DNA from: a virus | Virus record (IMG/VR): IMGVR_UViG_3300027708_001637 | DNA: 64,000 bases | Reading direction: 5' to 3' (one strand) | Shown: in pieces, positions 16,983-44,648 of the stretch | Position numbering within the stretch: the first letter of the stretch is position 1 | Layout: each line of letters opens with the position of its first letter | Program-made: the position numbers and the translations under genes | Notes under the pieces: model-generated | What the model saw: only the letters and a program-made list of their open reading frames with translations | Database searches by the model: none | What the model was told of the DNA's origin: nothing

Positions 16983-17041
16983 TTGACAAAAAAATATTAG
17001 TGTGTTATAATAATGACTTATTAACACACTTAGGATACAAT
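16983..17041 (+). promoter_or_regulatory. Early-type promoter and leader cassette outside the early region
   Basis: TTGACA 16983, 17 bp, TATAAT 17006, then leader ACTTATTAACACACTTAGGA. Confidence 0.85.
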
Positions 17042-21250: not shown

Positions 21251-21478
21251 TGAATGAGATACCTTATAATCGCGTGTATAGCATATTTAGCAGCCGTTAT
21301 AATATGGCCTAATATTCCTCAAAGTTCTGTACAAGTATTTCCCGTGTAGGTCATAGGGTATTCTTTCTCTTGTATATGGATATTTATCACACCCCACCAC
21401 ATACTGTTGACAAGGCCCTCTTTAGATATTATAATACACACACGTATATAGATAAACCCCCACACATACAAACCCATT

Positions 21479-22290: not shown

Positions 22291-22633
22291 AGGTGGGCGG
22301 AGGACCAAAGAAAATACTTAGATGCGCTGTAGAGTATTTGGCGATAGCCTGTCTACGGTGTCAACCATTCTGTCGCACTATAGCAACGATTTTCTACGAT
22401 TTTCCGCCCTAGATTAGACAATTTTTGCGCATTCTGGGGCCAAAATCCCTCTGAAATGGTGTCAAATACTACCAAAACCTGCTCAAAAACCTGGTGATTC
22501 TGTGGTGAAATAGCAACGGCGTCAACAACTCTTGATTGCTCTAACCGTGCCTACCGTGTATAATAAGTACATAGTGTAGAGACAGTGTGTCGAGTATATA
22601 GTATAATATATAGTGTGTTGAGTGACTCTACGC

Positions 22634-22669
22634 TATATAGTGTATATAGTGTATATAGTGTATATAGTA
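22634..22669. repeat. AT-rich 9-bp tandem repeat (TATATAGTG)x4
   Basis: Three exact copies and one variant directly upstream of the tRNA. Confidence 0.85.
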
Positions 22670-22682
22670 GTGTGTATACAGT

Positions 22683-22759
<77 letters not shown>

Positions 22760-22789
22760 TTGATCAACCTTTCACTACGTAAGACCGAC

Positions 22790-22980
22790 TTGTCCACAGG
22801 TTATTCAACCTTTCACTGCACAGGATCGACTTATTCACAAGTTATCCACAGGGTTTCTGGTTATCCACAGCTTATTCACAAGTTGTCCACAAGTTATCCA
22901 CAGGGCAGAGTTATTCACAAGTTGTCCACAGCTTATCCACAATTTTCTGTTATCCACAGGATACTCACAGCTTATCCACA
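22790..22980 (+). promoter_or_regulatory. Array of 12 co-oriented DnaA boxes phased at 11 bp
   Basis: TTATCCACA at 22842, 22861, 22894, 22933, 22950, 22972; TTATTCACA at 22831, 22872, 22911; TTGTCCACA at 22790, 22883, 22922. Confidence 0.88.
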
Positions 22981-23244
22981 GCCTGCTTCAACGACCAAGT
23001 ACTGCGCAGAGTGCATTGTACTGCTCAAACCTTACAGGCTCCTTACGACCACACGACCATTGTGGTCATTAAAGACTCGCGCACCCTCCACGTCCACCCC
23101 AGGCCTGCTTTCGAATATGAGTGTATTATAGCAGGGTTTCCTTACAGGAACCTTACAACCCTGAAGGCAGTGTGGGATTAGAAAGCGGTTGACAGTGAGT
23201 GCAAACGGCCTTATAATAACAGCTTACACACACTAGGAGCACGT

Positions 23245-23406
23245 ATGCAAGTAAAACAGGAAATTTTAGCACTACTGATGCAGGTTGAGCAATTGCTGCT
23301 GGAAGCACAGTGCGATGGCAAACAGTTTGCAGAGCTGGACTGTTTTGAAGAAGCAGACCTGGCAGTAGCACACTTAACACAAGTGGTTGACTATTACGTA
23401 GATTAA
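23245..23406 (+). CDS. Early cassette ORF (53 aa, not in track)
   Basis: Promoter and AGGAG leader; MQVKQEILALL...VDYYVD. Confidence 0.8.
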   Translation: MQVKQEILALLMQVEQLLLEAQCDGKQFAELDCFEEADLAVAHLTQVVDYYVD

Positions 23407-23442
23407 TGTTATAATACAGTTTTAACACACTAAGGAGCACTT

Positions 23443-23829
23443 ATGCAAGTTTTTACTACACTGCACACAGACGGTGGCGGTTACTGGTCGCGCACTGCAA
23501 AGTCCGTAGACATTACTAAACTGGACCTGCAGTACTGCACAGCGGAGCGGGATTTTGGCGAGCTGTGCGTATACTTTACAGGGGACACTTGGGACTGTGC
23601 TAAAATGGGTCTAATTTACACAGACCGGCAGTTTATGCGGGAATTGCAAGCATACCTGCAGACTTTGGGCTTTAGTGAAGCTGAAGCTAAAGATGTAAGT
23701 TACAGCGAGCAGGGTATGCAAACAGGCCGCTATGTGAGTTGTGATGTAGGGTCTACATTTATTGCAGGCCTTGCACGTTTGGACCCTGTGCACGTGGCCG
23801 CTGTAGTTGCTGAGTGCTGGGACATTTAA
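23443..23829 (+). CDS. Early cassette hypothetical protein
   Basis: Own promoter and AAGGAG SD. Confidence 0.85.
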   Translation: MQVFTTLHTDGGGYWSRTAKSVDITKLDLQYCTAERDFGELCVYFTGDTWDCAKMGLIYTDRQFMRELQAYLQTLGFSEAEAKDVSYSEQGMQTGRYVSCDVGSTFIAGLARLDPVHVAAVVAECWDI

Positions 23830-23910
23830 AGACCCTACAGGGAGCAGGGTCATTAGTTGACACTGTTCCCGTTCTGTTGTATAATAACGGCTTACACACA
23901 CTAGGAGTTG

Positions 23911-24027
23911 ATGATGCGTACACTGATAGACATACTGATTGATTTGAAAAATGCTATTGCAGTAGCAGACATAGAAACAGCAGAAGATTTAGCAAACGAA
24001 GCACTAGATTTTGCTACACAGGAATAA
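23911..24027 (+). CDS. Early cassette ORF (38 aa, not in track)
   Basis: Own promoter and SD; MMRTLIDILIDLKNAI. Confidence 0.7.
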   Translation: MMRTLIDILIDLKNAIAVADIETAEDLANEALDFATQE

Positions 24028-24106
24028 CCCTACAGTGCACAGGGTCTTTGGTTGACGCTGTGCACTTTTGGCATTATAATGTATGCTTACACACTAAGGA
24101 GCGCTT

Positions 24107-24370
24107 ATGTTAACAGTTGATCAAACTACACGTTCGTACACAGGTCGTCCAGGATGTATGTGCGGCTGCATGGGCACGTACAATGAGAGCCTGCGTGCCC
24201 GCAAAATGGCCATTACGGCCTTGCTTAAAAATCCAGCAGTTCGTTACGACACGTGGTGTGGTGGTACAGAGGGCGCCCTGTTTGTAGTTACTGCGACCCG
24301 CAACCGTGTACTGTACTTGACAGAGGCGGGCGTGAAAACTGTGCAGGCACTGGGCGTAAAGTCCGAGTAA
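24107..24370 (+). CDS. Early cassette hypothetical protein
   Basis: Own promoter and SD; GCMCGC motif. Confidence 0.85.
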   Translation: MLTVDQTTRSYTGRPGCMCGCMGTYNESLRARKMAITALLKNPAVRYDTWCGGTEGALFVVTATRNRVLYLTEAGVKTVQALGVKSE

Positions 24371-24442
24371 ACTGTAGGGGCAAGGGTTGACAGCCTTGCC
24401 CTAAGGCGTTATAATAACAGCTTACACACACTAGGAGTAGAT

Positions 24443-24727
24443 ATGTTCACTACAGACAACCAAGTAGCACTCAAAGCAGAGTTGGATCAGATGTACGCAG
24501 ATCAGGGCGCTGCGTTCACCTCAGGTTACCTGAACAGCATGGCACAGGAAATGCTGAACCTTATGCCCAAGCGCCAGCAGAAGGCATTTATCAAACAGGT
24601 TGCTACCTTCAACGGTCGCCAGCTGGTCACTGTGAAAAACTGTTTGACTGGTGCAGACGTTGAGATCCGCAGGGAAGACAGGGGCACGGTAAACGATCCT
24701 AGCATGGAACGATTCCACTCAATGTGA
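24443..24727 (+). CDS. Early cassette hypothetical protein
   Basis: Own promoter and SD. Confidence 0.85.
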   Translation: MFTTDNQVALKAELDQMYADQGAAFTSGYLNSMAQEMLNLMPKRQQKAFIKQVATFNGRQLVTVKNCLTGADVEIRREDRGTVNDPSMERFHSM

Positions 24728-24786
24728 GGTTGACAGGGACTGGGTTCCCTGTCATAATAACGGCTTACACACACTAAGGAGCAGAG

Positions 24787-24981
24787 ATGGCAAGAGCAGA
24801 TCAAATCCATACCGCACTGGACGAGCTGGAAGCAGCCGCACAAGTCTTCATTGAAGCCATTGCAGAGTTCAAGCGCACATACACACCCAACACGGTGGAT
24901 CTCTTGGCTTGGCAAGCGGGCATTGAAGACGTCGTGTACGAGATCCAGGAAGACATTGAAGTAGAGTTGGAAAGCCGTTGA
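24787..24981 (+). CDS. Early cassette hypothetical protein
   Basis: Own promoter and SD; stop lies inside the next -35. Confidence 0.85.
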   Translation: MARADQIHTALDELEAAAQVFIEAIAEFKRTYTPNTVDLLAWQAGIEDVVYEIQEDIEVELESR

Positions 24982-25034
24982 CAGTTTGAGCAAACGGTTG
25001 TATAATACAGACTTACACACACTAAGGAGCTGAT

Positions 25035-25250
25035 ATGACACGTGAAGCAACTACTAGACTGCTGTCTATGATGGATGAGGGTCTCATCTCTGCAGAGGCA
25101 GTGGCTGAGATGGCCCTTGCTTATATGAGTGAGGATGAGGTGGCAGACATGATGCGAAGCAACGACATCCTGGATGAGGATGAGGAAGACGAGTATGATG
25201 GCCAGCCCGACGAAGCCCAAGAGTGGGCAGACTTTGATCCTGAATGCTAA
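25035..25250 (+). CDS. Early cassette acidic hypothetical protein
   Basis: Own promoter and SD; D/E-rich C-terminus. Confidence 0.85.
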   Translation: MTREATTRLLSMMDEGLISAEAVAEMALAYMSEDEVADMMRSNDILDEDEEDEYDGQPDEAQEWADFDPEC

Positions 25251-25260
25251 GGAGTAAGAC

Positions 25261-25464
25261 ATGAGCGGTGCATTCTTCTTCATTGAATACCAAGATGGTC
25301 ATGTAACTGAGATCGAGTTTAAAGATCCAGCAAAGGCTCGAAAGGCCTATAAGAACTATGCAAAGCAACCTGAGGACACGGCTAAGAGTTGGGGATGGGA
25401 CACCAAATACGAAGCGCCCACCTTGACTCAGCAGATTCGTGCAAAAAAGGCATTGACAGTCTAG
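25261..25464 (+). CDS. Early hypothetical protein
   Basis: AAGGAG SD, no separate promoter. Confidence 0.8.
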   Translation: MSGAFFFIEYQDGHVTEIEFKDPAKARKAYKNYAKQPEDTAKSWGWDTKYEAPTLTQQIRAKKALTV

Positions 25465-25513
25465 GCAAATGATCGTATAATACATACTTCAACAACGCAC
25501 TTAGGAGAACACT

Positions 25514-25804
25514 ATGTCCATTCAAACTATCAACGCAGAAATCCTCGCAGGTAACTTTACCAATGACCAACTGTCCCTCATCATTGACGCTGTCAAGTTC
25601 GCTCGTGCACGACTGATGGAAGTAAACAAGCGCAGTCTGCAGATTGGCGACAATGTCAACTTTACGTCCAGCAAGACAGGGCAGAACATTACGGGCGTGG
25701 TGATGAAGATTGCTATCAAGTTCGTCACTGTTAAAACGGTGCAGGGTCTGTGGCGTGTTCCAGCTAATATGCTGTCAAAGGTTGAAGACCGAGAATTTGC
25801 ATAA
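25514..25804 (+). CDS. Early cassette hypothetical protein (SH3-like C-terminus possible)
   Basis: Own promoter and SD; IGDNVNF...TGVVMKI...WRVPANML. Confidence 0.85.
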   Translation: MSIQTINAEILAGNFTNDQLSLIIDAVKFARARLMEVNKRSLQIGDNVNFTSSKTGQNITGVVMKIAIKFVTVKTVQGLWRVPANMLSKVEDREFA

Positions 25805-25868
25805 AAGGCTTGACAGGGGAACGAGCCCCTGTTATAATAACGACTTACACAGCAACTAAGGAGCAGAG

Positions 25869-26126
25869 ATGAAAGCATTGCAAGCATACGTGGATCAGAA
25901 GAACCGTTGGAACGCGATCTTCAACGGCAAACAATATGAGATCGTGAGCAAGTTTGGTCGCCAGGAAGTGGCTGGTATGTTGGACGCAGACTTGAGTCCA
26001 GAGAACTTGACCTGCGATGGCGAACTGCCCCGTGCAGAAGTCAATCGTCGCTATCGGGAACTGACTGGTGCCGCACGGGACTTGATCAAGTTGGATCCCA
26101 CTGTTAAGATGTACGAATTTGCCTAA
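25869..26126 (+). CDS. Early cassette hypothetical protein
   Basis: Own promoter and SD; LSPENLTCDGEL. Confidence 0.85.
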   Translation: MKALQAYVDQKNRWNAIFNGKQYEIVSKFGRQEVAGMLDADLSPENLTCDGELPRAEVNRRYRELTGAARDLIKLDPTVKMYEFA

Positions 26127-26186
26127 GGTGTTGACACAGGAGCGATCCTGTGTTACAATACACACTTACACACTAAGGAGCACACG

Positions 26187-26369
26187 ATGACTTGGGAAGA
26201 CTTGAAAGACATGATCAAAGACTTCACTGAAGAACAGCTGAAGCAGACAGTGACTATCTATGTAAGCGGCGTGGGCGAATACTACGCTCCCGTAGGCGAC
26301 TATCCCCTAGTTGAAAGCGACGACACCTGTGACGTGTTGGACCCTGGTCACAAATACCTTGTAATCTAA
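26187..26369 (+). CDS. Early cassette hypothetical protein
   Basis: Own promoter and SD. Confidence 0.8.
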   Translation: MTWEDLKDMIKDFTEEQLKQTVTIYVSGVGEYYAPVGDYPLVESDDTCDVLDPGHKYLVI

Positions 26370-26378
26370 GGAGCTGAT

Positions 26379-26561
26379 ATGGATAGAGACGAAATGATTG
26401 ACTACTTGATCAACGGCGACTTCCAGTACATCATGGAATGCGCCAATGGTCCTGAACTGTTGGACAGTTACCTGGGCTATGGCTTCAAAGGTTACCGCAA
26501 TTTTACCGACGCAGAACTCACAGCTGAATACGAACAACGCAAGGAGATGGAAAATGCCTAA
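26379..26561 (+). CDS. Early hypothetical protein
   Basis: AAGGAG SD. Confidence 0.8.
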   Translation: MDRDEMIDYLINGDFQYIMECANGPELLDSYLGYGFKGYRNFTDAELTAEYEQRKEMENA

Positions 26562-27156
26562 TTGGTGCTCGAATGGTTTGACCTTGACCCACAAGGATCC
26601 CGCAATGATTGACCGTGTGATCAAAGGCAAGGAGGGCCTATTGCAAGAGTTCATCCCTTGCCCACAGGACTTGACGGATACAGTGAGTGGCTATGTAGGT
26701 GACGAACAGGAGGCCTTAGAGGCTAAACAGGCGGCCAACCGTGAGAAATACGGCTATGCCACTTGGTATGACCACAATGTGGCTGAGTGGGGCACCAAGT
26801 GGGATGTCAGTGCAGACAGCATTGAGCGAGTGGATGCCAACACCGTGCAGATGAGCTTTGACAGTGCGTGGGCTCCTCCAACCAATGCCTATGAGAAGTT
26901 GATGGCTTTGGGCTTTGAAGTTGAAGCAACCTACTACGAGCCTGGTATGGCATTCTGCGGTCGTTGGGACAATGGCCACGATGACTACTTCGAGTATGGC
27001 GGTATGACTGCTGATGAGATCGAAGCCACCTTGCCCAAAGAATTGGATGAAGAATACGGCATCAGTCAAGCGGTAAGTGAGTGGGAGCAGGAGCAGGCCG
27101 GCGAAGAAAATGTTGACATTGAGTTGAACGGTGGTATTGACAGCATCAACGAATGA
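26554..27156 (+). CDS. DUF1281/YubB-like ferredoxin-fold protein
   Basis: Start MPNWCSN after AAGGAG; WYDHNVAEWGTKWD; FDSAWAPP; YYEPGMAFCG. Confidence 0.75.
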   Translation: MPNWCSNGLTLTHKDPAMIDRVIKGKEGLLQEFIPCPQDLTDTVSGYVGDEQEALEAKQAANREKYGYATWYDHNVAEWGTKWDVSADSIERVDANTVQMSFDSAWAPPTNAYEKLMALGFEVEATYYEPGMAFCGRWDNGHDDYFEYGGMTADEIEATLPKELDEEYGISQAVSEWEQEQAGEENVDIELNGGIDSINE

Positions 27157-27191
27157 TTGTATAATACATACTTACACACACTAAGGAGCAG

Positions 27192-27569
27192 ATGATGCAA
27201 CGCTATTACGACGAACTGGCCACTTATGAACGCGATGGCTTTACTGTAATTGTAGACAAGACCTATGAAGACCTTCACCCCCGCGATTGCTTTGAAGCAG
27301 ACGACATTGACGAGATCTGCCGTAAGATTGACAACGGCACCTACGATTGGTTTATGCTCCGTGTCCGCGTTATGGTTGAAGGACTCGAACTTGGTTCGTC
27401 CTACGTGGGCGGATGCTTATACAGTGACGCCCGAGAAGTCCTTACTGACGGGCTTGCCGAGGACTTCATTTGGGAGGCTTTGAAAGAAGCCAAGCCTAAG
27501 GTCTATGCATTGAAGCAGAAGTTCGCTGAGTTGAGCGATATGGTTGACCGTGAGGCTGTGACCTCATGA
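27192..27569 (+). CDS. Early cassette hypothetical protein
   Basis: Own promoter and SD. Confidence 0.85.
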   Translation: MMQRYYDELATYERDGFTVIVDKTYEDLHPRDCFEADDIDEICRKIDNGTYDWFMLRVRVMVEGLELGSSYVGGCLYSDAREVLTDGLAEDFIWEALKEAKPKVYALKQKFAELSDMVDREAVTS

Positions 27570-27793
27570 ATGTGAATCAAGTACTACAGTGGGCAGGCAC
27601 TGCCTGCTTCTTGGCGATGTATACACTGATGAGCTTCTTTCCCGAACAGTATCCTTGGAACATTGTGGCAGGTGCTCTTGGCGGTGGGCTCTACTTGATA
27701 TGGAGTCTACGAGTGCGCAACAAACCACAGACGGTGACTAATATTATCGGCCTGCTGGTGTGCACTGCTGGATTAATACGTGCGTGGGCTTGA
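27566..27793 (+). CDS. Small early membrane protein
   Basis: ATGA overlap; three hydrophobic segments. Confidence 0.8.
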   Translation: MNVNQVLQWAGTACFLAMYTLMSFFPEQYPWNIVAGALGGGLYLIWSLRVRNKPQTVTNIIGLLVCTAGLIRAWA

Positions 27794-27841
27794 CAGCTAC
27801 TGCTTTTGAATATATACTTAGATAACACTACAAGGAATCAT

Positions 27842-28018
27842 ATGGCAGGCAAAGCAAAATCGGTCTACTTGACCATTCTCCCCAAGGGTCAACTCCGTCC
27901 CACTATTCTTCACAAGGTCTTCTTTGATGCCAAAGGCTACAATGAATTCGTCAACACGGAGGAATTCAAGGCCAAGTATCCCAAAGAAGAGTTTGACATT
28001 GTCAAAGAAACCTATTGA
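27842..28018 (+). CDS. Early cassette hypothetical protein
   Basis: Start MAGKAKS after AAGGA. Confidence 0.8.
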   Translation: MAGKAKSVYLTILPKGQLRPTILHKVFFDAKGYNEFVNTEEFKAKYPKEEFDIVKETY

Positions 28019-28069
28019 CACTTGACTGTTTTGGTTGTATAATACATACATCGCAACAAGGAGTGAAGA

Positions 28070-28258
28070 ATGAAAACAGAAATTGAACGCATCCAGGAAC
28101 TGCTGCCCACAGAGTTGTTTGCGGGTAGCAAGGACTGGCGTGAAGGCAGCACTGCTGAGCGAGTCGAGTGGTTACTATCCATGTATGCCAGCGCCCAGCA
28201 GGAAGTTGAGCGTTTGGAGGTTTCGGTTTATCAATTGACCGCCGATGAGAGTTATTAA
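28070..28258 (+). CDS. Early cassette hypothetical protein
   Basis: Own promoter and SD. Confidence 0.8.
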   Translation: MKTEIERIQELLPTELFAGSKDWREGSTAERVEWLLSMYASAQQEVERLEVSVYQLTADESY

Positions 28259-28322
28259 CCCTACTGGTTGACAGGTTGCCAATTTGGTGGTATAATACAT
28301 ACATCGCAACAAGGAGCACACT

Positions 28323-28544
28323 ATGGGCTACAAGGTTATCGCTGGTAAGGATGAGATGGACTTGATGCGTGTCAAGTACGGCCCGCGTAAGGGCTTGGAA
28401 GGTCCGTTCAACTTTGGTGGCTGGGTCCTGTACTATGATCCAGTTGAAGGCGCCTACTATGACCCCACTACGGACTTCTATGTGAGCCGTGAGGAGATGG
28501 ATGCTATCAACAACAGGCTCATGGCCACACTGGCCAAGGCTTGA
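28323..28544 (+). CDS. Early cassette hypothetical protein
   Basis: Own promoter and SD; LEGPF...LYYDPVEGAYYDPTTDFY. Confidence 0.85.
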   Translation: MGYKVIAGKDEMDLMRVKYGPRKGLEGPFNFGGWVLYYDPVEGAYYDPTTDFYVSREEMDAINNRLMATLAKA

Positions 28545-28587
28545 CAATAAGGCCAAATGGCCTTATAATACACACTAAGGAGCACTT

Positions 28588-28824
28588 ATGATCACAGCAG
28601 ACAAACTCAAACTGCTCACCAATATGCCAGCGGCTATGCTTACAATGGGCATCCAGCAGGCAGGCTACAAGGGCGACGTCTTCAAGACGGCCCGGTTCCT
28701 GGGCATCACCAATGCAGGCCAGTTCTGCTACACCACTACCTACGAGGAAGATGGTGAGGAACACACCGTCAAGGCGTTTGTTGACTATGATCCCATTGCT
28801 GATCAAGTCACTGTCGGCTACTGA
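28588..28824 (+). CDS. Early cassette hypothetical protein
   Basis: Own promoter and SD. Confidence 0.85.
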   Translation: MITADKLKLLTNMPAAMLTMGIQQAGYKGDVFKTARFLGITNAGQFCYTTTYEEDGEEHTVKAFVDYDPIADQVTVGY

Positions 28825-28882
28825 AAAAGTCTTGACAATAGCATCAAACGGTGCTATAATACTGACACACTAAGGAACAGAG

Positions 28883-29089
28883 ATGAATGAAGAATTGAAC
28901 ACACTAAAAGAACTGTTGGCCCGACACGATTGGACCTACAACTACAGCGATGACTATACGGCTTGGTCTCGTGGTCGTAATGAGAGTCGTGCTATCCAAG
29001 CAGAGAAGAATCGTCTGGCCCGTGAGTGCTTGGCCACGCAAGAAGAAATAGTTGCACTTGATGCCCTATATAGGCCAAAAAACATTTGA
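28883..29089 (+). CDS. Early cassette hypothetical protein
   Basis: Own promoter and SD; HDWTYNYSDD. Confidence 0.85.
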   Translation: MNEELNTLKELLARHDWTYNYSDDYTAWSRGRNESRAIQAEKNRLARECLATQEEIVALDALYRPKNI

Positions 29090-29141
29090 CAAGAGTGCAG
29101 TTTGGCGTTATAATTTAGACTTACACACACTAGGAGCTGAT

Positions 29142-29381
29142 ATGAACGTTCGAGAACTCATTGAGCAGTTGCAAGTCCTGGACCAGGATGCTGAAGTGCA
29201 CTTCAGCTACAACTATGGCGACCACTGGCACACACAGGTTGCTCCCACCGTAGACGAGGTGTTTGAAGGCCTAGTCAAGCGCAGTGAATATCACCGTATG
29301 GATAAACTGATGGATGAGAATGATATGTATGAAGAAGAAGGCGACTACGAAGGCACACGCCGCGTGGTTGTGCTGGGTTAA
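29142..29381 (+). CDS. Early cassette hypothetical protein
   Basis: Start MNVRELIEQL after AGGAG. Confidence 0.85.
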   Translation: MNVRELIEQLQVLDQDAEVHFSYNYGDHWHTQVAPTVDEVFEGLVKRSEYHRMDKLMDENDMYEEEGDYEGTRRVVVLG

Positions 29382-29458
29382 TAGCCCCTACAAGCCCCGC
29401 GAGGCTGGCAGTGAATGCTAGTGTAGCGGGGCAGATAGACCCCTGCTGTAGGGGCTAT
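29381..29458 (+). ncRNA. Candidate structured RNA or DNA element (branched hairpin)
   Basis: 12-bp perfect outer stem ATAGCCCCTACA/TGTAGGGGCTAT with nested GCCCCGC/GCGGGGC; no U-tail. Confidence 0.45.
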
Positions 29459-29534
29459 AAAAAGATTCAAAAAAGAGTTGACAAAGATTGTTTTTGGCCT
29501 TATAATATACACTTACACACACTAGGAGTTGAAA

Positions 29535-29987
29535 ATGGGAACACGAAGCACTATTGCACTTGAGTACGCAGACAGCACAGTTCATCAAGTCTACTGTCAC
29601 TGGGACGGCTACTTGGATCACAATGGTCGGATCCTGTTTGAGCATTACAAAGATCCCTTCAAACTGCGCGACTTGATGGACTTGGGTAGTGTCAGTTCGT
29701 TGGGTCGAGAGATTGGCGAGCAGCATCCCTTCAGCCCGCACACTAGCAAAGAAGATGAAGCGGCGTACAATGCGGCACAGGAAGCAGGCTGGTGTACAAT
29801 TTACGCTCGCGATCGCGGCGAGACAGGTGTGCAGGCTAAGAAGTTTAAAGACTTTGAGGACTATGTTGCCAATCACCAATATGAAGAATACGAGTACATC
29901 TTGCGCACAGACGGCAAGTGGTACGTGTCTACAGACAACGGTGTTTACACAGAATTGGAAACTTTACTTTTGAAGGAAACAGCATGA
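29535..29987 (+). CDS. Early cassette hypothetical protein
   Basis: MGTRSTIA...YCHWDGY; own promoter and SD. Confidence 0.85.
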   Translation: MGTRSTIALEYADSTVHQVYCHWDGYLDHNGRILFEHYKDPFKLRDLMDLGSVSSLGREIGEQHPFSPHTSKEDEAAYNAAQEAGWCTIYARDRGETGVQAKKFKDFEDYVANHQYEEYEYILRTDGKWYVSTDNGVYTELETLLLKETA

Positions 29988-30151
29988 AAGAACTAGCATA
30001 CGACATTGAACAACTGTACATCGAGGGCTATAGTCCCCGGACTATCTCGGTGATGTTGGAGTGCCCCATTGACATCGTTTACGGATGGATTGAAGGGCAG
30101 AGCCTAGAAGTAGGGGAGGAATTTGATCCGTTCGAAACAATCAATTCTTAA
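29984..30151 (+). CDS. Small HTH-like protein
   Basis: ATGA overlap; GYSPRTISVMLECPIDIVYGWI. Confidence 0.65.
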   Translation: MKELAYDIEQLYIEGYSPRTISVMLECPIDIVYGWIEGQSLEVGEEFDPFETINS

Positions 30152-30249
30152 GAAAACGGTTGACAGCCAACCCAAATGGTTGTATAATTAATACATAGGG
30201 CAGTAAGGTGCTGCGCTATATTTTACACAGACACATTGAAAGGTATTTT

Positions 30250-30636
30250 ATGACTAAAGTTTTTTCCCACGCTGGCGTTTCTCGTTTGGATGGTGTTTTG
30301 AAGGCTCGTTTTGCCAATGACGCTCTCCGTGTTAAGGTGCTTGCCAAAGGCGGCCACACTGACATCGATCTCGTTGAGTTCCTGGAACCCCTTACCAAAG
30401 AAGCCGCAGTGCTTAAACTGATTGAGATGGGCTTTGGCAAAGGCAACGCAGAAGTTGAGCAAGTCCTGGCTGCTGAGCTGGACAAGCGAGCTCCTGTTGT
30501 CAAAGCAGAGAAGGCTCCCAAAGCGCCTAAGGCTCCTAAAGCAAAGGCAATTACCATTGACACCATTAAGGCTAAGGCTCCCAAGGCCAAGGCTGCTCCT
30601 AAGGTCGACGCTGACCTCGAAGACGCTCCGTTCTAA
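30250..30636 (+). CDS. Early protein with Lys/Ala/Pro-rich histone-like tail
   Basis: KAEKAPKAPKAPKAKA...KAKAPKAKAAPK. Confidence 0.8.
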   Translation: MTKVFSHAGVSRLDGVLKARFANDALRVKVLAKGGHTDIDLVEFLEPLTKEAAVLKLIEMGFGKGNAEVEQVLAAELDKRAPVVKAEKAPKAPKAPKAKAITIDTIKAKAPKAKAAPKVDADLEDAPF

Positions 30637-30706
30637 AAGATCCCTGCGGTGTGCGTAGAGGCAAGGCCAATAAGTCCTCTTCGATAAACAATTTTTTGGA
30701 GTATAT

Positions 30707-30886
30707 ATGAAAACAGTCTTCCTTATTGCACTAATCATCTTCCTGGTGGTAATGGGACCGTTCCTGAGCATTTGGGCACTGAACACCTTGTTCCCCACAT
30801 TGGCAATCCCTTACACCTTTGACACTTGGTGTGCGGCAATCCTGATCAAAGGCTTCCTCACTGTCAGCGTGTCCAAGAAGGACTGA
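30707..30886 (+). CDS. Small membrane protein (59 aa, not in track)
   Basis: GGAG SD; MKTVFLIALIIFLVVMGPFLSIWALNTLF. Confidence 0.75.
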   Translation: MKTVFLIALIIFLVVMGPFLSIWALNTLFPTLAIPYTFDTWCAAILIKGFLTVSVSKKD

Positions 30887-30887
30887 T

Positions 30888-31106
30888 ATGAGTCGCTTGT
30901 CCTTTATCGGCCGGCCCTGGGTAGCATTTGATGAAACCAACAAACAACATCGTCAATGGTTCCGAGAGTTCCAAACATTGGGCACCTGGGGCCGTTGTCC
31001 AGTTCGTTTTATCGTAAGCGATGACCACGGCGACTTGTTGACTATGATCCAGCGTAGGTTGATTACTTATTACACCAGCAAGGAATTTGGTAAGATTAGT
31101 GCTTGA
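30888..31106 (+). CDS. Hypothetical protein
   Basis: Adjacent to the upstream stop; its own stop lies in the next -35. Confidence 0.75.
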   Translation: MSRLSFIGRPWVAFDETNKQHRQWFREFQTLGTWGRCPVRFIVSDDHGDLLTMIQRRLITYYTSKEFGKISA

Positions 31107-31174
31107 CCTTGGCAGTCTATTCCTGTAATATTGTTGTAACTGTTGAACACAGTACAATTACAAGGAATAGAAAA

Positions 31175-31447
31175 ATGATTAAGAAGATGAATAAAGAAAC
31201 TAAGACATACAAGTTGTTCCAAGCATTGCAAGCAGGTGACCGTATCACCCCCGCGCAAGCCCACAAGCGATTTGGTATCAAGAACATGAGTGCTGAAGTC
31301 AGCCGTGTTCGTCAGTCAGGTTTTGCAGTGTATCGTAAGAATCGTGTAGCTGGCAACCACGTGGAAGTCACCGAGTACGTAATGGGTACTCCAAGCCGTG
31401 AAATCGTGGCAGCTGGTTACAAGGCTATGGCCCTGGGCCTAGTCTAA
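31175..31447 (+). CDS. Winged-helix-like DNA-binding protein
   Basis: LFQALQAGDRITPAQAHKRFGIKNMSAEVSRVRQSGFAV. Confidence 0.6.
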   Translation: MIKKMNKETKTYKLFQALQAGDRITPAQAHKRFGIKNMSAEVSRVRQSGFAVYRKNRVAGNHVEVTEYVMGTPSREIVAAGYKAMALGLV

Positions 31448-31451
31448 AGAA

Positions 31452-31596
31452 TTCGGGGATAGTAGTGTGTCCCCGAAACGATGAGGAGGTAGTGTGCCTC
31501 ATCGAATGAAATCCAACAACGCTCCGTTGGATTGATGTTAGTGCCAGGGGTAGTGTCCTGGCAGGAAAGGGCAACGTCGGGAGATGTGGCCCTTTC
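31452..31596 (+). ncRNA. Five tandem hairpins, three with GTAGTG loops (candidate regulatory RNA)
   Basis: 8-bp stems at 31452, 31479, 31510, 31542 and 31565. Confidence 0.6.
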
Positions 31597-31666
31597 ATTT
31601 TGACTTGACAATCTGCTCAAATGGCCTTATAATACAAGCATAGACAGCAACACACTGGAGCACAAG

Positions 31667-32026
31667 ATGGCACGTAAGACAAAGGCAGAACTGGTAGCAG
31701 AGAACGAAGCGTTCATGGCCCAACGATTGGCAGAAGAAGTTGCTGCCTTCCCCGCCCTGTTGATGGCGCAGTTGGAACGGGCAACGAACAGTCCCAACTG
31801 GTTTGAACTCCGAGTGCGCGATAGCCAGTTCGTCTTAATCGAAGATCGTGAGACTTGGAAGTTACCTATGGTCCACTCTATGGAAGCTCAGATAGTCCTG
31901 GACAGCCTGATGTGGGACTTGGATCAGCTGGATGAGGATCGTCGTGTGGCGGCAGAGCGTGAAGAGATGCGTCAAACGGCCTTGTCCAAGTTGACAGACT
32001 TTGAACGTAAATTGTTGAATCTATAG
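31667..32026 (+). CDS. Early cassette hypothetical protein
   Basis: Own promoter and GGAG SD. Confidence 0.85.
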   Translation: MARKTKAELVAENEAFMAQRLAEEVAAFPALLMAQLERATNSPNWFELRVRDSQFVLIEDRETWKLPMVHSMEAQIVLDSLMWDLDQLDEDRRVAAEREEMRQTALSKLTDFERKLLNL

Positions 32027-32090
32027 GGTTGACAGGCCTATCAAAAGGCCTTATAATACACACATGAACAGCAACACACAGGAGCAGGAA

Positions 32091-32477
32091 ATGGCGTACA
32101 CAGATTGGAATTCGCAGGTAGACATCAAGAACATGGTGGGCAAGGTGTTCACTCGCGTCTCGGGCGGAGTGGGCAGCGGCGAGCTGGTGTTTGAAAACGA
32201 CACTGAGCGATTCGTGTTCTTCCACTACCAGGACTGCTGCGAGTGCGTGGATATCAACGACATTGTGGGCGACTTGCAGGATTTGGTAGGTGAGCCACTC
32301 CTGATCGCTGAAGAAGTGTCAGGTGCTACTGAGCCAGACGAAGAGCACTACGAGAGCTATACCTATACCTTCTACAAGTTCGCTACCCGTCGAGGCTATG
32401 TGGACGTTCGCTGGTTGGGTGAGAGCAACGGCTACTACAGCGAAGGCGTGAGCCTGGGACACGAACTGCGGGCTTGA
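32091..32477 (+). CDS. Early cassette conserved phage protein
   Basis: HYQDCCECV...WLGESNGYYSE; own promoter and SD. Confidence 0.85.
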   Translation: MAYTDWNSQVDIKNMVGKVFTRVSGGVGSGELVFENDTERFVFFHYQDCCECVDINDIVGDLQDLVGEPLLIAEEVSGATEPDEEHYESYTYTFYKFATRRGYVDVRWLGESNGYYSEGVSLGHELRA

Positions 32478-32531
32478 CAGACAGGCCCTACGGCCTTATA
32501 ATTGACGCTTACACACACTAAGGAGCTGACC

Positions 32532-32813
32532 ATGCGAGTTGAAGTATTAAAGCCCACCAATGATGACTGGTGCGGATCATATCAAATTGACGGCTACCAC
32601 AAGGGTGTTAAGAATCCCATGTTGGTTCAAGTCTTCTTCAACGGCTGGATTGGTGATGGCGTATGGCGTACCTCAGTCTGGGGCAATGATGATTTGGGTA
32701 TGGAATTTGACTGCTCTACAGAAGCCGAATGCTGGAACAAGTTCCTCCAAGTGATTGGCATGGAGTACGTGGATGTAGTGGCCCTGCGTGAACTTGGTTT
32801 TGTTTCAGCCTAA
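32532..32813 (+). CDS. Early cassette hypothetical protein
   Basis: Start MRVEVLK after AAGGAG. Confidence 0.85.
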   Translation: MRVEVLKPTNDDWCGSYQIDGYHKGVKNPMLVQVFFNGWIGDGVWRTSVWGNDDLGMEFDCSTEAECWNKFLQVIGMEYVDVVALRELGFVSA

Positions 32814-32871
32814 ACGGGTTGACAAGGAATGGGTTTGGGCTTATAATACACGCATACACTAGGAGCACACT

Positions 32872-33150
32872 ATGCAATGGAACTTAGAAGGCAAACGAAT
32901 CAATGGCATCTACCTAGGACTGTTTGTCTACAGTGGCTTGGTTCTGGAAAGCCGTGTCAAATACGGTGGACAGGTCCAGCACACTGTATTGGTAGACGAG
33001 CCCTTCAAAGTCTACGGCGAAGTGCGCGAGCATATCCTTGTGGAGTCAGGCACGGGCGAGATCAATCGCATCCTGGATGAGCGTGATGCGGAGTACGAGG
33101 CACAGAAGACCAACGACACTTGGTACGACGATCAATACGAAATTGAATAA
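32872..33150 (+). CDS. Early cassette hypothetical protein
   Basis: Own promoter and SD. Confidence 0.85.
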   Translation: MQWNLEGKRINGIYLGLFVYSGLVLESRVKYGGQVQHTVLVDEPFKVYGEVREHILVESGTGEINRILDERDAEYEAQKTNDTWYDDQYEIE

Positions 33151-33221
33151 TCCATTTGGTTGACAGGTCTTTCAAAAGGCCGTATAATACATACATCGCG
33201 CAACACACTAAGGAGCACACT

Positions 33222-33596
33222 ATGTTGGAATTGAAAAGCTGGGATGAGATGTCCACCCTGGAGCAGATGCAAGCCCAGTACTGGGATATGTACAAGGACG
33301 CATACGGCATCCGTCCACGTCATATGAACCTCGAGGCTATGACTGAGGCAGACTTTCTAGCAGAGTTCAAAATCCTGGGTGAGGCGATTGAGCGCGAAGC
33401 GGCCATTCGCAAAGAGAACGAGCACAAGGCCGAAGTGGACTTTGAAATGCGGGTGCAGAACCTGCTGGTAACGGGCGCACGGGATCGTGCTATGGCACTC
33501 CGTTGGATACACGAGGCAGAAGGTAGCAACGGTGACGACGAGTTCCTGTGCTACTTGGTGGGCCTGCCCTATGGATATTTCCGTAAACGGGCTTGA
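33222..33596 (+). CDS. Early cassette conserved phage protein
   Basis: YWDMYKDAYGIRPR; own promoter and SD. Confidence 0.85.
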   Translation: MLELKSWDEMSTLEQMQAQYWDMYKDAYGIRPRHMNLEAMTEADFLAEFKILGEAIEREAAIRKENEHKAEVDFEMRVQNLLVTGARDRAMALRWIHEAEGSNGDDEFLCYLVGLPYGYFRKRA

Positions 33597-33648
33597 CAAC
33601 TAGGCCAAATGGCCTTATAATACATACATCGCAACAAAGGAGCAAGAG

Positions 33649-33738
33649 ATGGACACTGCACTCGTAAACCTCATCATCATATTGGCACCCATTTGGATTA
33701 TGGGCATTGCCGTTATGTTACACGAAATCTTTAACTAA
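33649..33738 (+). CDS. 29-aa single-pass membrane peptide (not in track)
   Basis: Own promoter and SD; MDTALVNLIIILAPIWIMGIAVMLHEIFN. Confidence 0.7.
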   Translation: MDTALVNLIIILAPIWIMGIAVMLHEIFN

Positions 33739-33748
33739 GGAGCCAACC

Positions 33749-33991
33749 ATGAGCGTAGAATTTACCATTGTGGGACTGAACGAGAAACAACGAGTCCTGG
33801 CTGATATCATGTGGGGCTTGGATGGACTTGATCAGGTCAACGCATTCATTGCCACACTGCCTAAACGGGATCAAACGGAATGCCGCTCTATCATTGAACT
33901 GATGAAGATGGCCCTTGTGGAACAATGCTACGATGGCATCAGCGAGATGGATCAAGCGAAATCAGTGCTTGACAAGATTGCCAAACGATAG
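33749..33991 (+). CDS. Early hypothetical protein
   Basis: AAGGAG SD; MSVEFTIVGL. Confidence 0.8.
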   Translation: MSVEFTIVGLNEKQRVLADIMWGLDGLDQVNAFIATLPKRDQTECRSIIELMKMALVEQCYDGISEMDQAKSVLDKIAKR

Positions 33992-34021
33992 TACAATACA
34001 CACTCAACTAAGGAGCAAGAG

Positions 34022-34243
34022 ATGGACAGATATCACGTCGTATACGAAACCCGTCATGGTAGCCCATACGATCGCGGCTCAGCAGATAGCTATTACCGCA
34101 GGGAATATAATCCCCACTACTACCGGGGAGCCACAGGCACTACTGATCGGGTCACCCTTAAGGACATGACACCCGATGAGATCGTGGCCTATACCGCAGG
34201 CTATGAAGACAACGAAGACGAAGGTCTTCACAAAGAGTGGTAA
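34022..34243 (+). CDS. Early cassette conserved phage protein
   Basis: HGSPYDRGSADSYYRR. Confidence 0.85.
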   Translation: MDRYHVVYETRHGSPYDRGSADSYYRREYNPHYYRGATGTTDRVTLKDMTPDEIVAYTAGYEDNEDEGLHKEW

Positions 34244-34303
34244 AACCCTCTTGACAATGAGGCCGCAAGGCCTTATAATCAACACTCAACTAAGGAACAC
34301 GCA

Positions 34304-34450
34304 ATGATCAAATCCATCCCAAGCTCCACTGGCGGTGTCATTACTCCTCTCATCGAAAAGGGTGTCCAGGTTGGCATCCGACACACCGCTGGCAAGGCCT
34401 ACACTGGCAAGATTGCCCAGCAGGAAGCCCGACAAAAGAAGGTCAAATAA
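34304..34450 (+). CDS. Early cassette ORF (48 aa, not in track)
   Basis: Own promoter and SD; MIKSIPSSTGG...KKVK. Confidence 0.75.
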   Translation: MIKSIPSSTGGVITPLIEKGVQVGIRHTAGKAYTGKIAQQEARQKKVK

Positions 34451-34523
34451 ATTACCTAAAGGCTTGACGAACACTACGAACGGCCTTATAATACTAGCAT
34501 TGCAACACACTAAGGAGCACACT

Positions 34524-35348
34524 ATGCCAAGAGGTTACAGAAACGATGGTCAACCCCGCCAACGTCGAGATGGTTCTGGTCCACTAACTGCAAAGGTCAC
34601 TATGCCCGTAAGCCAAGTCGTTCCCTCACGCTTTTCCATTAACCAACGCTTTGGCTTTGTCACTGACATGGTCAATATGGTGGCACAGGGCACCCAAGCA
34701 AGTGTAGTTATTTGCGGCCCTGGCGGACTAGGCAAGAGTCATACTGTTATGACCGCACTGAAAAACAAGGGCTTCCAGGACATTACACTGGCAGATAATA
34801 ATACCCGCGCAAACAAGAGTTATACTGTGGTCAAAGGCTATAGTACTGCAAAAGGCCTGTTCCGTTTACTGTGGGAAAACAAAGACGGCGTACTGGTATT
34901 TGACGACTGCGATTCAGTATTAAAAGATCCAGTTAGTCTCTCGCTATTGAAAAGCGCATTGGACAGTTATAGCCGCCGTGTTATTACTTGGCGCGCAGAC
35001 TTTAAAGACGACGATATTCCCAACAGTTTCCTGTTTACTGGTCGTGTAGTATTCATTTCCAATATGAACACGCAACAGTTAGACCAAGCGGTGGTAACTC
35101 GTAGTTTGTGCGTGGACTTGAGTATGACCACACTGCAAAAGGTCGAGCGTATGCAACACTTATTGACCAACGCAGACTTTATGCCCGAGTATGAAATGAA
35201 TCATAAACGGGATGCCATGCAGTTAATTGCCCGTGTGCAAGACAGCGTTAAAGAGCTGAGCCTGCGTACACTGATCCAATGCGTTAAGATCCGCACTGCT
35301 AATACCCGTAACTGGGAAGAACTGGCAGAGTACGCGATCTGCGGCTAA
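34524..35348 (+). CDS. AAA+-type P-loop ATPase
   Basis: Walker A GPGGLGKS, Walker B LVFDDCD, sensor FISN; start MPRGY after the cassette leader. Confidence 0.88.
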   Translation: MPRGYRNDGQPRQRRDGSGPLTAKVTMPVSQVVPSRFSINQRFGFVTDMVNMVAQGTQASVVICGPGGLGKSHTVMTALKNKGFQDITLADNNTRANKSYTVVKGYSTAKGLFRLLWENKDGVLVFDDCDSVLKDPVSLSLLKSALDSYSRRVITWRADFKDDDIPNSFLFTGRVVFISNMNTQQLDQAVVTRSLCVDLSMTTLQKVERMQHLLTNADFMPEYEMNHKRDAMQLIARVQDSVKELSLRTLIQCVKIRTANTRNWEELAEYAICG

Positions 35349-35419
35349 GCCTACAAAGGGGGTTGACAGCCCCCGCCATTGACACTATAATTATGGCTTA
35401 CACACACTAAGGAGCTAGT

Positions 35420-35599
35420 ATGCAGAACCCCATCCCCCACAGTAATATGTTCGTTACTGAGTCCCTGAAGGCAGTGTTTGAACGCATTGAGCGCTTGAGC
35501 AACCGACAGGAACGAGCACTGGCCTATCAAATTGCAATGACCGTGCTAAACGCTTGCCATGAGGCAGTGCAAAAAGAGCTTGACGCTGAGACTGTTTGA
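35420..35599 (+). CDS. Early cassette ORF (59 aa, not in track)
   Basis: Own promoter and SD; MQNPIPHSNMF...LDAETV. Confidence 0.75.
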   Translation: MQNPIPHSNMFVTESLKAVFERIERLSNRQERALAYQIAMTVLNACHEAVQKELDAETV

Positions 35600-35636
35600 T
35601 CGTATAATATAGACTTACACACACTAGGAGCTGACT

Positions 35637-35984
35637 ATGGAACTTACCCAACAACAAGTAGAGCAGATCGTTAACGATGCAATGACCACTGCACACCAAG
35701 CGGCCCAGCGAGCACTGGCTGAACACGGCGACAGAGACTGCTGTGGCTTTGCTTGGGTTAACATTTGGGAACACAACGGCAAGAAGATCCGTGCCAACAG
35801 TAAGCTGGGCAAGGCACTTGCAGCCGCAGGTGTACGCAAGGACTGGCAAGGCGCATACTGCCTGTGGAACCCTAGCAAACTAGGCGTGCAGAGTATGGGC
35901 ATACTGGAAGCAGGTGCGTATGCGGCTGCTGAAGTGTTCAAACTGCACGGCTTTAAGGCCTACGCTGGCTCGCGTATGGACTAA
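35637..35984 (+). CDS. Early cassette conserved phage protein
   Basis: CCGFAWVNI; own promoter and SD. Confidence 0.85.
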   Translation: MELTQQQVEQIVNDAMTTAHQAAQRALAEHGDRDCCGFAWVNIWEHNGKKIRANSKLGKALAAAGVRKDWQGAYCLWNPSKLGVQSMGILEAGAYAAAEVFKLHGFKAYAGSRMD

Positions 35985-36053
35985 CTGATTGCTCCGGACG
36001 GGGCTGGGGGGTAGTGCCCCTAGTAACAGGCCCCGTCCACATATAAAAGGATT

Positions 36054-36077
36054 GGACCGTAATGGTCCTTTCTTTTT
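36054..36077 (+). terminator. Intrinsic terminator closing the early region
   Basis: GGACC-GTAAT-GGTCC then TTTCTTTTT. Confidence 0.7.
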
Positions 36078-36394
36078 GACCTGAGTGGTTGGTGGGTGGG
36101 GCGGTGGTCGTACAAAACGAAAACTGTTGTACAAAAGCAACAACTTGCTTGCCAAAAATTCTATCAAATCTTTCTATCAAAAAAATCCTAAATTCCACTC
36201 TTTAAAAAACCCGAGTTATAGTAGAACCACTCAGATCTAAATCTCCAGGTCTTTTTATTATTTTTTCACAGGTTTTGGGCTAGTATATAGGTCGGTGTCC
36301 CCAGCACCTTAGAAACTCTGACTAAATCTAAAGATGCCACTCAAAAATTTTTACGCGCCAAATTTTTGCTAGTGTATATAGACCTGGACTGCCA

Positions 36395-36712
36395 CTATGA
36401 CCCAAACTTCAGCAAGTATAGTAAGTATCTAGCATCGTCCACTACAGTGTATTCATCAGTAATCATACTGTTGTTATCCAGTATAACCTTCAATCCCCAC
36501 TGTTGTTCTAGCCATACGTGATATGTATTGGGAGTGGGGCAGTGTGTTCTTGCTCTTTTTAAACGTGCCCAATGTTGATCGCGTTTGATGCGCAGTTGAG
36601 TCAGTTCACTACTAACTGCCAGTATCTGTTCATTAACGTCTTCCATGTTATAACTAGGGTTATTGAGTTCGTCGTCCATAGTGTATATAGTGTGAGTAGA
36701 ATCAAGAGCCAC
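36395..36712 (-). CDS. Hypothetical protein
   Basis: ORF; likely start MDDELNN at 36679. Confidence 0.55.
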   Translation of the reverse strand: MALDSTHTIYTMDDELNNPSYNMEDVNEQILAVSSELTQLRIKRDQHWARLKRARTHCPTPNTYHVWLEQQWGLKVILDNNSMITDEYTVVDDARYLLYLLKFGS

Positions 36713-43867: not shown

Positions 43868-44648
43868 TTCTTATCTCATCATAGGTTGGTGCATAATTAC
43901 CGCGGTGTTGAACTGTTATGCTTGCAGCGGTGTTAGCAAACATTATAGCAATTTTTATGTTTCCTGTCAATAGGTATTGATAAGTTAGCGCTGCCAAAAA
44001 AGTATCCCCTGCACCGCACACATCTGCTACTTCAACTTTAGTTGTTCGATATGTTTTGCCTTTATATTGAGCACCTTTGTCTCCTAACGTAACAATAACA
44101 TTGTCGCCAAGTGTTTTGGCATTCTTAAATTCAAGTTCGTTAATTTTGATATAAACGTGGGGTGACTGGAATGGGCGGGCGATGTCTGCTAATCTAGTTT
44201 TCTTTGTATCAATAAAGACTGGACACGAAACTTGTCTAACGAGGTCTTCTATTTCATCATAACGTAAAAAACCCTTATCATAATCTGATATCACAATGGC
44301 ATCATAACTTGTAATAGGGTCCGATGTTTTGCCACTCCAGTGAACAATTTTGGGTTCATCATCCACTCTTAGTAAATGTTGTCCTGATCGTTTATCAATA
44401 TATCTAGTCTTTTTAATGACGGCATCGTTAGTAATGAACTCTGCATCAATGCCTAACTGTTTAAGATTATTATATACGTTAGCAGCCATACCAGGCACTG
44501 TTGTAGTTTCAACATCCTTGATAACTGGCACTGGTGCTTCTGGACTCAGTCTATCAACTGTTCCAATCTTATATTCATCAATGCAACTATCACCGATCAG
44601 TAATACTTTGAATAATTTTTGTGCTGGAGTATTCTTCAATTCTGTCAT
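43854..44648 (-). CDS. rfaE: Heptose-7-phosphate kinase (HldE/RfaE domain I, PfkB family)
   Basis: IGDSCIDEY..GTVDRLSPEAPVPV, ISDYDKG, DVCGAGDTF. Confidence 0.9.
   Translation of the reverse strand: MTELKNTPAQKLFKVLLIGDSCIDEYKIGTVDRLSPEAPVPVIKDVETTTVPGMAANVYNNLKQLGIDAEFITNDAVIKKTRYIDKRSGQHLLRVDDEPKIVHWSGKTSDPITSYDAIVISDYDKGFLRYDEIEDLVRQVSCPVFIDTKKTRLADIARPFQSPHVYIKINELEFKNAKTLGDNVIVTLGDKGAQYKGKTYRTTKVEVADVCGAGDTFLAALTYQYLLTGNIKIAIMFANTAASITVQHRGNYAPTYDEIRIAGY

Follow-up and report, generated by a model that had tools for sequence, protein, structure and literature searches.

Organization of the array

We analyzed a 64-kb stretch of viral DNA, IMG/VR record IMGVR_UViG_3300027708_001637 (here, the window), whose plus strand carries between positions 23189 and 35984 a dense array of small genes, most of them led by their own σ70-type promoter. 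Thirty sites matching TTGACA-N17-TATAAT with ≤1 mismatch lie between 23189 and 35608, all in the same orientation; 22 match at 12 of 12 positions, eight at 11 of 12, and the spacer is exactly 17 bp in every case. By our own estimate, a perfect match is expected by chance ∼0.001 times per 12.8 kb. The minus strand of the array has no site at ≤1 mismatch, and the other 51 kb of the window contains four perfect promoters (16983-17011 and 21407-21435 on the plus strand; 43942-43970 and 4345-4373 on the minus strand). The original prediction for this DNA had listed 31 co-oriented, near-consensus promoters with an invariant 17-bp spacer: orientation, consensus, and spacer proved correct, but the count is 30. 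Outside the array, the perfect promoter at 16983 has a similar leader (acacttagga) ahead of an ATG.

The distance from the −10 element to the ATG is 18 to 33 nt at all promoters but P19 (30160), whose leader measures 61 nt. Leaders are rich in A and C (fractions of 0.38 and 0.27), and 25 of the 29 short ones carry AGGAG (AAGGAG in 16) 5 to 6 nt ahead of the ATG, so that the CA-rich leader with AGGAG and a small open reading frame (ORF) foreseen after most promoters is indeed there. Upstream of the −35 element, 20 to 40 nt consist mostly of the 3′ end of the preceding ORF; only an A at −6 and at −5 is conserved (19 of 30 promoters each), followed by G-rich positions.

There are 39 plus-strand ORFs of 29 to 274 amino acids (aa), 30 with their own promoter and nine (g08, g12, g13, g15, g23, g25, g26, g27, and g34) in short operons (Table 1). 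Twelve stop codons fall within the next promoter, seven of them formed by the TGA in the following TTGACA. The number of terminator-like sites does not exceed chance (16, versus 12.7 in shuffled sequences; standard deviation, 3.6), and the sole convincing terminator, 36054-36078, lies directly past the last gene; terminators are therefore as few as had been anticipated. The description of the units as self-contained promoter-leader-ORF cassettes needs qualification: the array is one of repeated units, but these are not fully self-contained, as none has a terminator of its own and 12 ORFs stop within the promoter that follows.

Table 1. Features of the array and its borders (P, promoter, with matches to the 12-position consensus; g, gene)
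Feature	Position	Strand	Description
Whole array	23189-35984	+	30 promoters, 39 ORFs, 83% coding; GC 0.48-0.49 vs 0.36-0.40 in flanks
C1	23189-23406	+	P1 23189-23217 (12/12); g01 23245-23406, 53 aa
C2	23387-23829	+	P2 (TTGACT, 11/12) within end of g01; g02 23443-23829, 128 aa
C3	23857-24027	+	P3 (12/12); g03 23914-24027, 37 aa
C4	24052-24370	+	P4 (TTGACG, 11/12); g04 24107-24370, 87 aa, Cys-rich
C5	24387-24727	+	P5 (12/12), −35 in loop of 9-bp hairpin (−17.7 kcal/mol); g05 24443-24727, 94 aa
C6	24730-24981	+	P6 (CATAAT, 11/12), spacer hairpin; g06 24787-24981, 64 aa, stop is TGA of next −35
C7	24978-25464	+	P7 (12/12); g07 25035-25250; g08 25261-25464
C8	25453-25804	+	P8 (12/12); g09 25514-25804, 96 aa
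C9	25810-26126	+	P9 (12/12), spacer hairpin; g10 25869-26126, 85 aa
C10	26131-27156	+	P10 (TACAAT, 11/12); g11, g12, g13 (26187-27156)
C11	27137-27793	+	P11 (12/12); g14 27195-27569; g15 27566-27793, hydrophobic, possible membrane protein
C12	27790-28018	+	P12 (TATACT, 11/12); g16 27842-28018
C13	28015-28258	+	P13 (12/12); g17 28070-28258, flanked by P13/P14, 84% alike over 49 nt
C14	28268-28544	+	P14 (12/12); g18 28323-28544
C15	28541-28824	+	P15 (12/12), GGCCAAATGGCC in spacer; g19 28588-28824
C16	28832-29089	+	P16 (12/12); g20 28883-29089
C17	29086-29381	+	P17 (12/12); g21 29142-29381
C18	29478-30151	+	P18 (12/12); g22 29535-29987 (150 aa), g23; start of clade-conserved block
C19 (core operon)	30160-31447	+	P19 (12/12), 61-nt leader; g24 30250-30636, Lys/Ala/Pro-rich tail; g25, g26, g27
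C19, g25	within 30160-31447	+	Hydrophobic, possible membrane protein
C19, g27	31175-31447	+	Winged helix-turn-helix, HTH_39
Hairpin cluster	31452-31597	+	Sole long noncoding stretch in array; five consecutive hairpins, −76 kcal/mol, z −7.4; three with GUAGUG(U) loops
C20	31605-32026	+	P20 (12/12); g28 31667-32026, flanked by P20/P21, 79% alike over 67 nt
C21	32029-32477	+	P21 (12/12); g29 32091-32477 (DUF7448)
C22	32474-32813	+	P22 (12/12); g30 32532-32813
C23	32819-33150	+	P23 (12/12); g31 32872-33150
C24	33160-33596	+	P24 (12/12); g32 33222-33596
C25	33593-33991	+	P25 (12/12); g33 (29 aa, hydrophobic); g34 33749-33991
C26	33969-34243	+	P26 (TACAAT, 11/12); g35 34022-34243
C27	34251-34450	+	P27 (12/12); g36 34304-34450
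C28	34464-35348	+	P28 (TTGACG, 11/12); g37 34524-35348, 274 aa, weak AAA-type ATPase signal (phrog_1250)
C29	35363-35599	+	P29 (12/12), −35 in hairpin loop; g38 35420-35599
C30	35580-35984	+	P30 (TTGACG, 11/12); g39 35637-35984
Array end	35990-36078	+	Nested hairpin, GGUAGUG loop (∼35998-36021); then stem-loop 36054-36068 and T-run

Leader structure and codon usage

The folding energy of the leader plus the first 18 nt of the gene is −0.051 kcal/mol per nt, compared with −0.191 in internal coding controls (P = 1e-8). Codon usage also sets the array apart: G+C content at third codon positions (GC3) is 0.556, versus 0.302 for genes elsewhere in the window. CTG, GGC, CGT, and NNC codons are used more in the array, and AGA, ATA, and GGA less; array and remaining genes differ most plainly in their fractions of CTG (0.35 versus 0.08), AGA (0.04 versus 0.25), and ATA (0.06 versus 0.26). 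Since some G-ending codons (GGG and CCG) drop, this pattern appears to fit selection for translation better than a uniform drive toward GC. The split extends across the clade: array GC3 is 0.50 to 0.57 in four relatives, versus 0.32 for 65 long ORFs elsewhere in one related genome (G001). Early and late phage genes are reported to differ in their codon usage (PMC5683454). So sharp a split (0.56 versus 0.30) offers a simple marker for early regions of AT-rich giant phages.

Proteins encoded by the array

We take the array ORFs to be real genes, because 30 of the 39 have protein homologues in relatives (29 to 94% identity) and because amino acid identity exceeds nucleotide identity for g05 (94% versus 85%) and g31 (91% versus 84%). 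No two of the 39 proteins show a detectable relationship, so paralogues are absent, and ∼26 of the 39 are acidic. Searches of PHROGs and Pfam returned families of unknown function only, except for g27 (HTH_39), g29 (DUF7448), and g37 (weak AAA-type ATPase); neither g37 nor g22 had a match among PDB sequences, and an Atlas search matched hypothetical viral clusters only. These results agree with the earlier description of ∼39 ORFs, nearly all without recognizable function. From their position, size, and charge, the products are presumed to be host-takeover, regulatory, or antidefense factors. The array would amount to a compact catalogue of ∼39 unrelated, codon-optimized small early proteins and a sensible hunting ground for such factors once the host is known.

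Three long ORFs (174 to 191 aa) lie on the minus strand opposite array genes, at 24526-25050, 28002-28556, and 30223-30798. In the one case that we compared (g07), the antisense frame is 52% conserved versus 76% for the sense frame; these ORFs are probably by-products of a GC3-rich coding strand.

Gene order in related arrays

A search with the leader motif identified 36 viral contigs, many with the same kind of array. A g22 homologue marks 72 metagenome loci, in related contigs from lakes, and these loci have 544 near-consensus promoters on the same strand and 22 on the opposite strand; among these 72, even the best relatives of g22 do not exceed 75% protein identity. In the complete 383-kb genome G001, 17 of the 30 perfect promoters fall inside one 10.5-kb stretch, while the reversed-pattern control gave 0.

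Gene order differs sharply between the array and its flanks. Comparison of the window with G001 gave a Kendall tau of 1.00 for 24 flanking genes but only 0.40 for 17 array genes at similar identity, and the g27 homologue of G001 sits outside its array. Across five arrays, genome pairs share 0 to 6 of 11 to 22 gene adjacencies. Orientation is nevertheless kept in all homologues except one, and the core block g22-g23-g24-(g25)-g26-(g27) is usually retained. The g10 and g13 genes are adjacent in most relatives and are separated by two genes in the window (g11 and g12) and by five in another related genome, G002; we take this junction to be an insertion hotspot. Within the window, neighboring leaders are more alike than expected under random order (P = 0.0035). 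At the level of the clade, these comparisons support the idea that array genes are shuffled.

Joints of structural differences in close relatives

We compared the arrays of closely related contig pairs (86 to 99% nucleotide identity) and found 24 distinct structural differences. A joint was scored as lying in a promoter-leader (the promoter plus its leader) when it fell from −10 to +70 of the start of the −35 element, a window that covers 16% of array bases. Both joints lie in such a window in 17 of the 24 differences, and at least one does in 21. Of 13 simple insertions or deletions (indels), eight have a junction overlap of 14 to 78 nt located in the promoter-leader, with the insert flanked by direct repeats. 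In contig L156, for example, an ORF sits between near-identical, directly repeated promoter-leaders of ∼78 nt, of which L162 has a single copy; in L094, a mosaic promoter matches one L096 promoter in its −35 element and spacer and another in its leader; and in G002, near-identical promoters flank single genes. Joints are distributed across the whole promoter-leader rather than at one fixed site. We at first took the spacer to move together with the gene upstream of it but do not propose this as a rule, since the joints of recent events occur at any point of the promoter-leader.

Aligning relatives for gene order and breakpoints, as had been proposed along with the shuffling idea, thus revealed an order that is not fixed and breakpoints at the repeats. 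Shuffling by recombination between promoter-leaders finds support in the scrambled order and in the 14- to 78-nt overlaps; this evidence comes from relatives, and some joints lie elsewhere.

Proposed function of the array

We consider it probable that the array is an immediate-early region for high protein output, whose genes are shuffled by recombination between the repeated promoter-leaders. On entry of the phage DNA, host σ70 RNA polymerase would start at 30 consensus promoters, each placed 18 to 33 nt ahead of a small gene and followed by a near-structureless, CA-rich leader with AGGAG 5 to 6 nt before the ATG. The codon set of the genes departs from that of the remaining phage genes and is of the kind found in strongly expressed genes. 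Because internal terminators are lacking, transcripts would read through and accumulate up to either the 31452-31597 hairpin cluster or the 36054-36078 terminator, and the predicted outcome is a fast burst of ∼39 unrelated, mostly acidic small proteins. Comparison with relatives indicates that the promoter-leaders (∼55 to 80 nt), which recur as direct repeats, let recombination delete, insert, replace, and move genes, with orientation and expression preserved.

Several observations weigh against this proposal. Promoter activity and early timing are inferred from the sequence, the codon regime, and transcriptome sequencing (RNA-Seq) of Pseudomonas phage PA5oct (PMC7318152), and no ORF matches a family of known function in PHROGs, Pfam, PDB, or Atlas. 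The breakpoints come from related arrays, the nearest relative of the window being only ∼80% identical in nucleotide sequence. The likeness between neighboring leaders recurs in G002, but not in G001, G004, or G005. Three of the 24 differences have neither joint at a recognizable promoter, and one further indel, in L096/L094, is located at an ATGA stop/start overlap. Finally, since intergenic DNA is nearly all promoter-leader, joints would be expected there also from selection that keeps genes intact.

The last three points also favor an alternative in which promoter-leaders are expression signals only, while illegitimate or microhomology-based recombination scrambles gene order and selection keeps the joints that fall between genes. 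The array is 83% coding, so promoter-leader windows make up almost all of its intergenic DNA, and the L096/L094 indel uses the ATGA overlap alone. Furthermore, 621 distinct clade promoters share functional positions (GG ahead of −35, TGn ahead of −10 in ∼55%, and a conserved start region), and function alone can explain such likeness. We regard this alternative as unlikely: the junction homologies of 14 to 78 nt, exactly on the promoter-leader in eight of 13 simple indels, are far above microhomology; mosaic promoters and near-identical promoters around single genes exist; and inversion of orientation is almost never seen.

A second alternative is that the array serves mainly as a decoy that ties up host σ70 RNA polymerase, with the small ORFs secondary. 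With 30 consensus promoters per 12.4 kb and no internal terminators, each polymerase would be engaged over kilobases, and strong phage T5 early promoters outcompete host promoters for polymerase. The ORFs, however, are conserved as proteins and have optimized ribosome sites and an expression-type codon bias, none of which a decoy would need. A rough packing estimate, moreover, allows ≤∼250 to 300 polymerases per 12.8-kb copy, a minor share of the cell pool at one genome per cell. A role chiefly as decoy is therefore very unlikely, while some competition for polymerase is plausible as a side effect.

Hairpins and the spacer element

Hairpins of −10 kcal/mol or stronger cover the −35 element or the spacer, rather than the upstream DNA, in 13 of the 30 promoters. 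Mean hairpin energy at promoters is −8.7, compared with −5.7 in shuffled sequences (P = 1.5e-4) and differing weakly from coding windows (P = 0.014); the arrays of G001 and G002 show no enrichment. A stem-loop as a defining part of the units, as in the promoter early stem-loop (PeSL) elements discussed below, was rejected on these grounds: it is partial (13 of 30), lies over the promoter, and is not enriched in G001 or G002.

The excess over shuffled sequences would also suit a system akin to integrons, with the promoter-overlapping hairpins as the substrate of a dedicated site-specific recombinase. That explanation is highly improbable, the least likely of those considered: more than half of the promoters lack the hairpin, joints are spread along the promoter-leader instead of clustering at a single site, and no integrase or recombinase family was matched by Pfam among the 10 flanking ORFs (∼6 to 7 kb on either side, the remaining genome being outside the search). 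Over that range, the array is integrase free, as originally proposed.

A different hairpin, whose stem is G/C and whose conserved loop reads GGUAGUG(U), recurs three times past the core operon (31452-31597) and once at the array end (35998-36021). It is also present in L120, L098, L117, L132, L133, L128, and L089, past the core operon in the first three; between relatives, the outer stem pairs vary and complementarity is kept. We count 20 distinct copies on the array strand and eight on the opposite strand. This hairpin is a candidate protein-binding or processing site.

About 20 of the 30 spacers contain a position-fixed C-(A/T)3-4-Y-GG element (for example, at 28547-28563, 33599-33615, and 32035-32051), in places as the palindrome GGCCAAATGGCC; relatives carry GGTAAAACC or CCAAAAGG at the same spacer position. 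The element may be an operator or, alternatively, a DNA-shape requirement of the promoter. More speculatively, the array could be an integrase-free exchange platform in which recombination between promoter-leaders sets free small circles that carry early genes from one co-infecting giant phage of this lake clade to another, with the spacer element (an A/T tract and then GG, in places a palindrome such as GGCCAAATGGCC) as an operator, perhaps for the winged-helix protein g27, switching all 30 promoters off together; we hold this combination to be doubtful, if conceivable.

Phage identity and setting of the array

Genes for a large terminase, a DnaB-type helicase, a second helicase, virion proteins, and a 2,878-aa protein identify the window as phage DNA. 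The large terminase shares 54% identity with its counterpart in the Pseudomonas jumbo phage PA5oct and 50% with that in Sinorhizobium phage Phosso, and IMG/VR includes relatives at up to 86% identity; judged by these matches, the window derives from an uncultured, metagenomic jumbo phage related to PA5oct. The array DNA had no megablast match among 50,697 phage records, and no cultured phage there is alike at the DNA level.

The array lies between a noncoding stretch with a tRNA and a cluster of DnaA boxes (22683-22980) and the replication module, with the packaging module also near. Directly upstream, at 22761-22980, are ∼12 DnaA-box-like 9-mers (TTATCCACA, TTATTCACA, and TTGTCCACA), many with an 11-bp period. 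The tRNA-plus-box stretch (22681-22960) aligns at ∼70% to its closest relative (G002/G003). The tRNA (22683-22759), the sole match in an Rfam search, has a CAT anticodon (tRNA-Met), and relatives carry a tRNA at the array edge or within the array. Given that ATA makes up 26% of Ile codons in late genes versus 6% in the array, an alternative candidate is a lysidine-type tRNA-Ile that reads ATA. Runs of the repeat TATATAGTGTA occur on both sides of the array (22568-22683 and 36678-36694), and the motif RTAGTGTR is present in 24 copies in the window versus 11 expected; this motif may mark promoters for later transcription by the phage itself or be a binding site.

Comparison with known systems

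The closest parallel is with the PeSL cassettes of T4-type phages, known from RB49/phi1, PST/T4, and nt-1/KVP40 (PMC2839356; PMC4122927). A PeSL unit consists of a stem-loop terminator, an AT-rich part, a σ70-like promoter, and then a Shine-Dalgarno sequence and ATG, and such units are located at indel joints (PMC2839356; PMC4122927); RB49 yields PeSL mini-circles with crossovers between the −10 element and the ATG (PMC2839356). The array shares with PeSLs a near-perfect TTGACA-N17-TATAAT promoter, the Shine-Dalgarno sequence and ATG, a hyperplastic setting of small genes without known function, and indel or replacement joints in the repeated units; the RB49 crossovers between −10 and ATG fit the joints seen in the relatives of the window. 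In contrast to PeSLs, the array has no consistent upstream stem-loop or terminator, its hairpins (13 of 30) overlapping the −35 element or spacer; the AT-rich upstream part is missing, since many promoters contain the end of the gene before them; and its leaders are unstructured, its codon regime is its own, and its phage lineage differs (relatives of PA5oct). By our analysis the array works like PeSLs yet is a variant rather than a member of that class, because the stem-loop does not match.

Early regions of PA5oct (PMC7318152) and CBB (PMC5259590) likewise have host-type TTGAC/TATAAT(A) promoters before many short hypothetical early genes, and PA5oct has related packaging genes (54% identity for the large terminase). 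Neither PA5oct nor Phosso has a dense array, however: 29 near-consensus sites are scattered over the 287 kb of PA5oct (14 in the reversed-pattern control, both strands), and Phosso has two, while in CBB 11 RpoD-like promoters are spread across CBB_390-546 (PMC5259590).

Integron arrays also consist of co-oriented, unrelated small genes gained and lost as units at repeated boundaries. Here, however, we found neither an integrase (10 flanking ORFs) nor attC-type sites, each unit has its own promoter, and exchange looks driven by homology rather than site specific. In the host-takeover module of phage SPO1, as in the array, nearly every small early gene has a very strong host-type promoter and a ribosome site; that module belongs to another host type and lineage, lies in the terminal redundancy, and is not described as shuffling cassettes.

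These comparisons leave current understanding standing and overturn nothing. They indicate that promoter-repeat cassette shuffling, known from coliphages and vibriophages of the T4 type, is at work in the early region of a large clade of uncultured lake jumbo phages as well, in a leaner form that dispenses with the stem-loop terminator.

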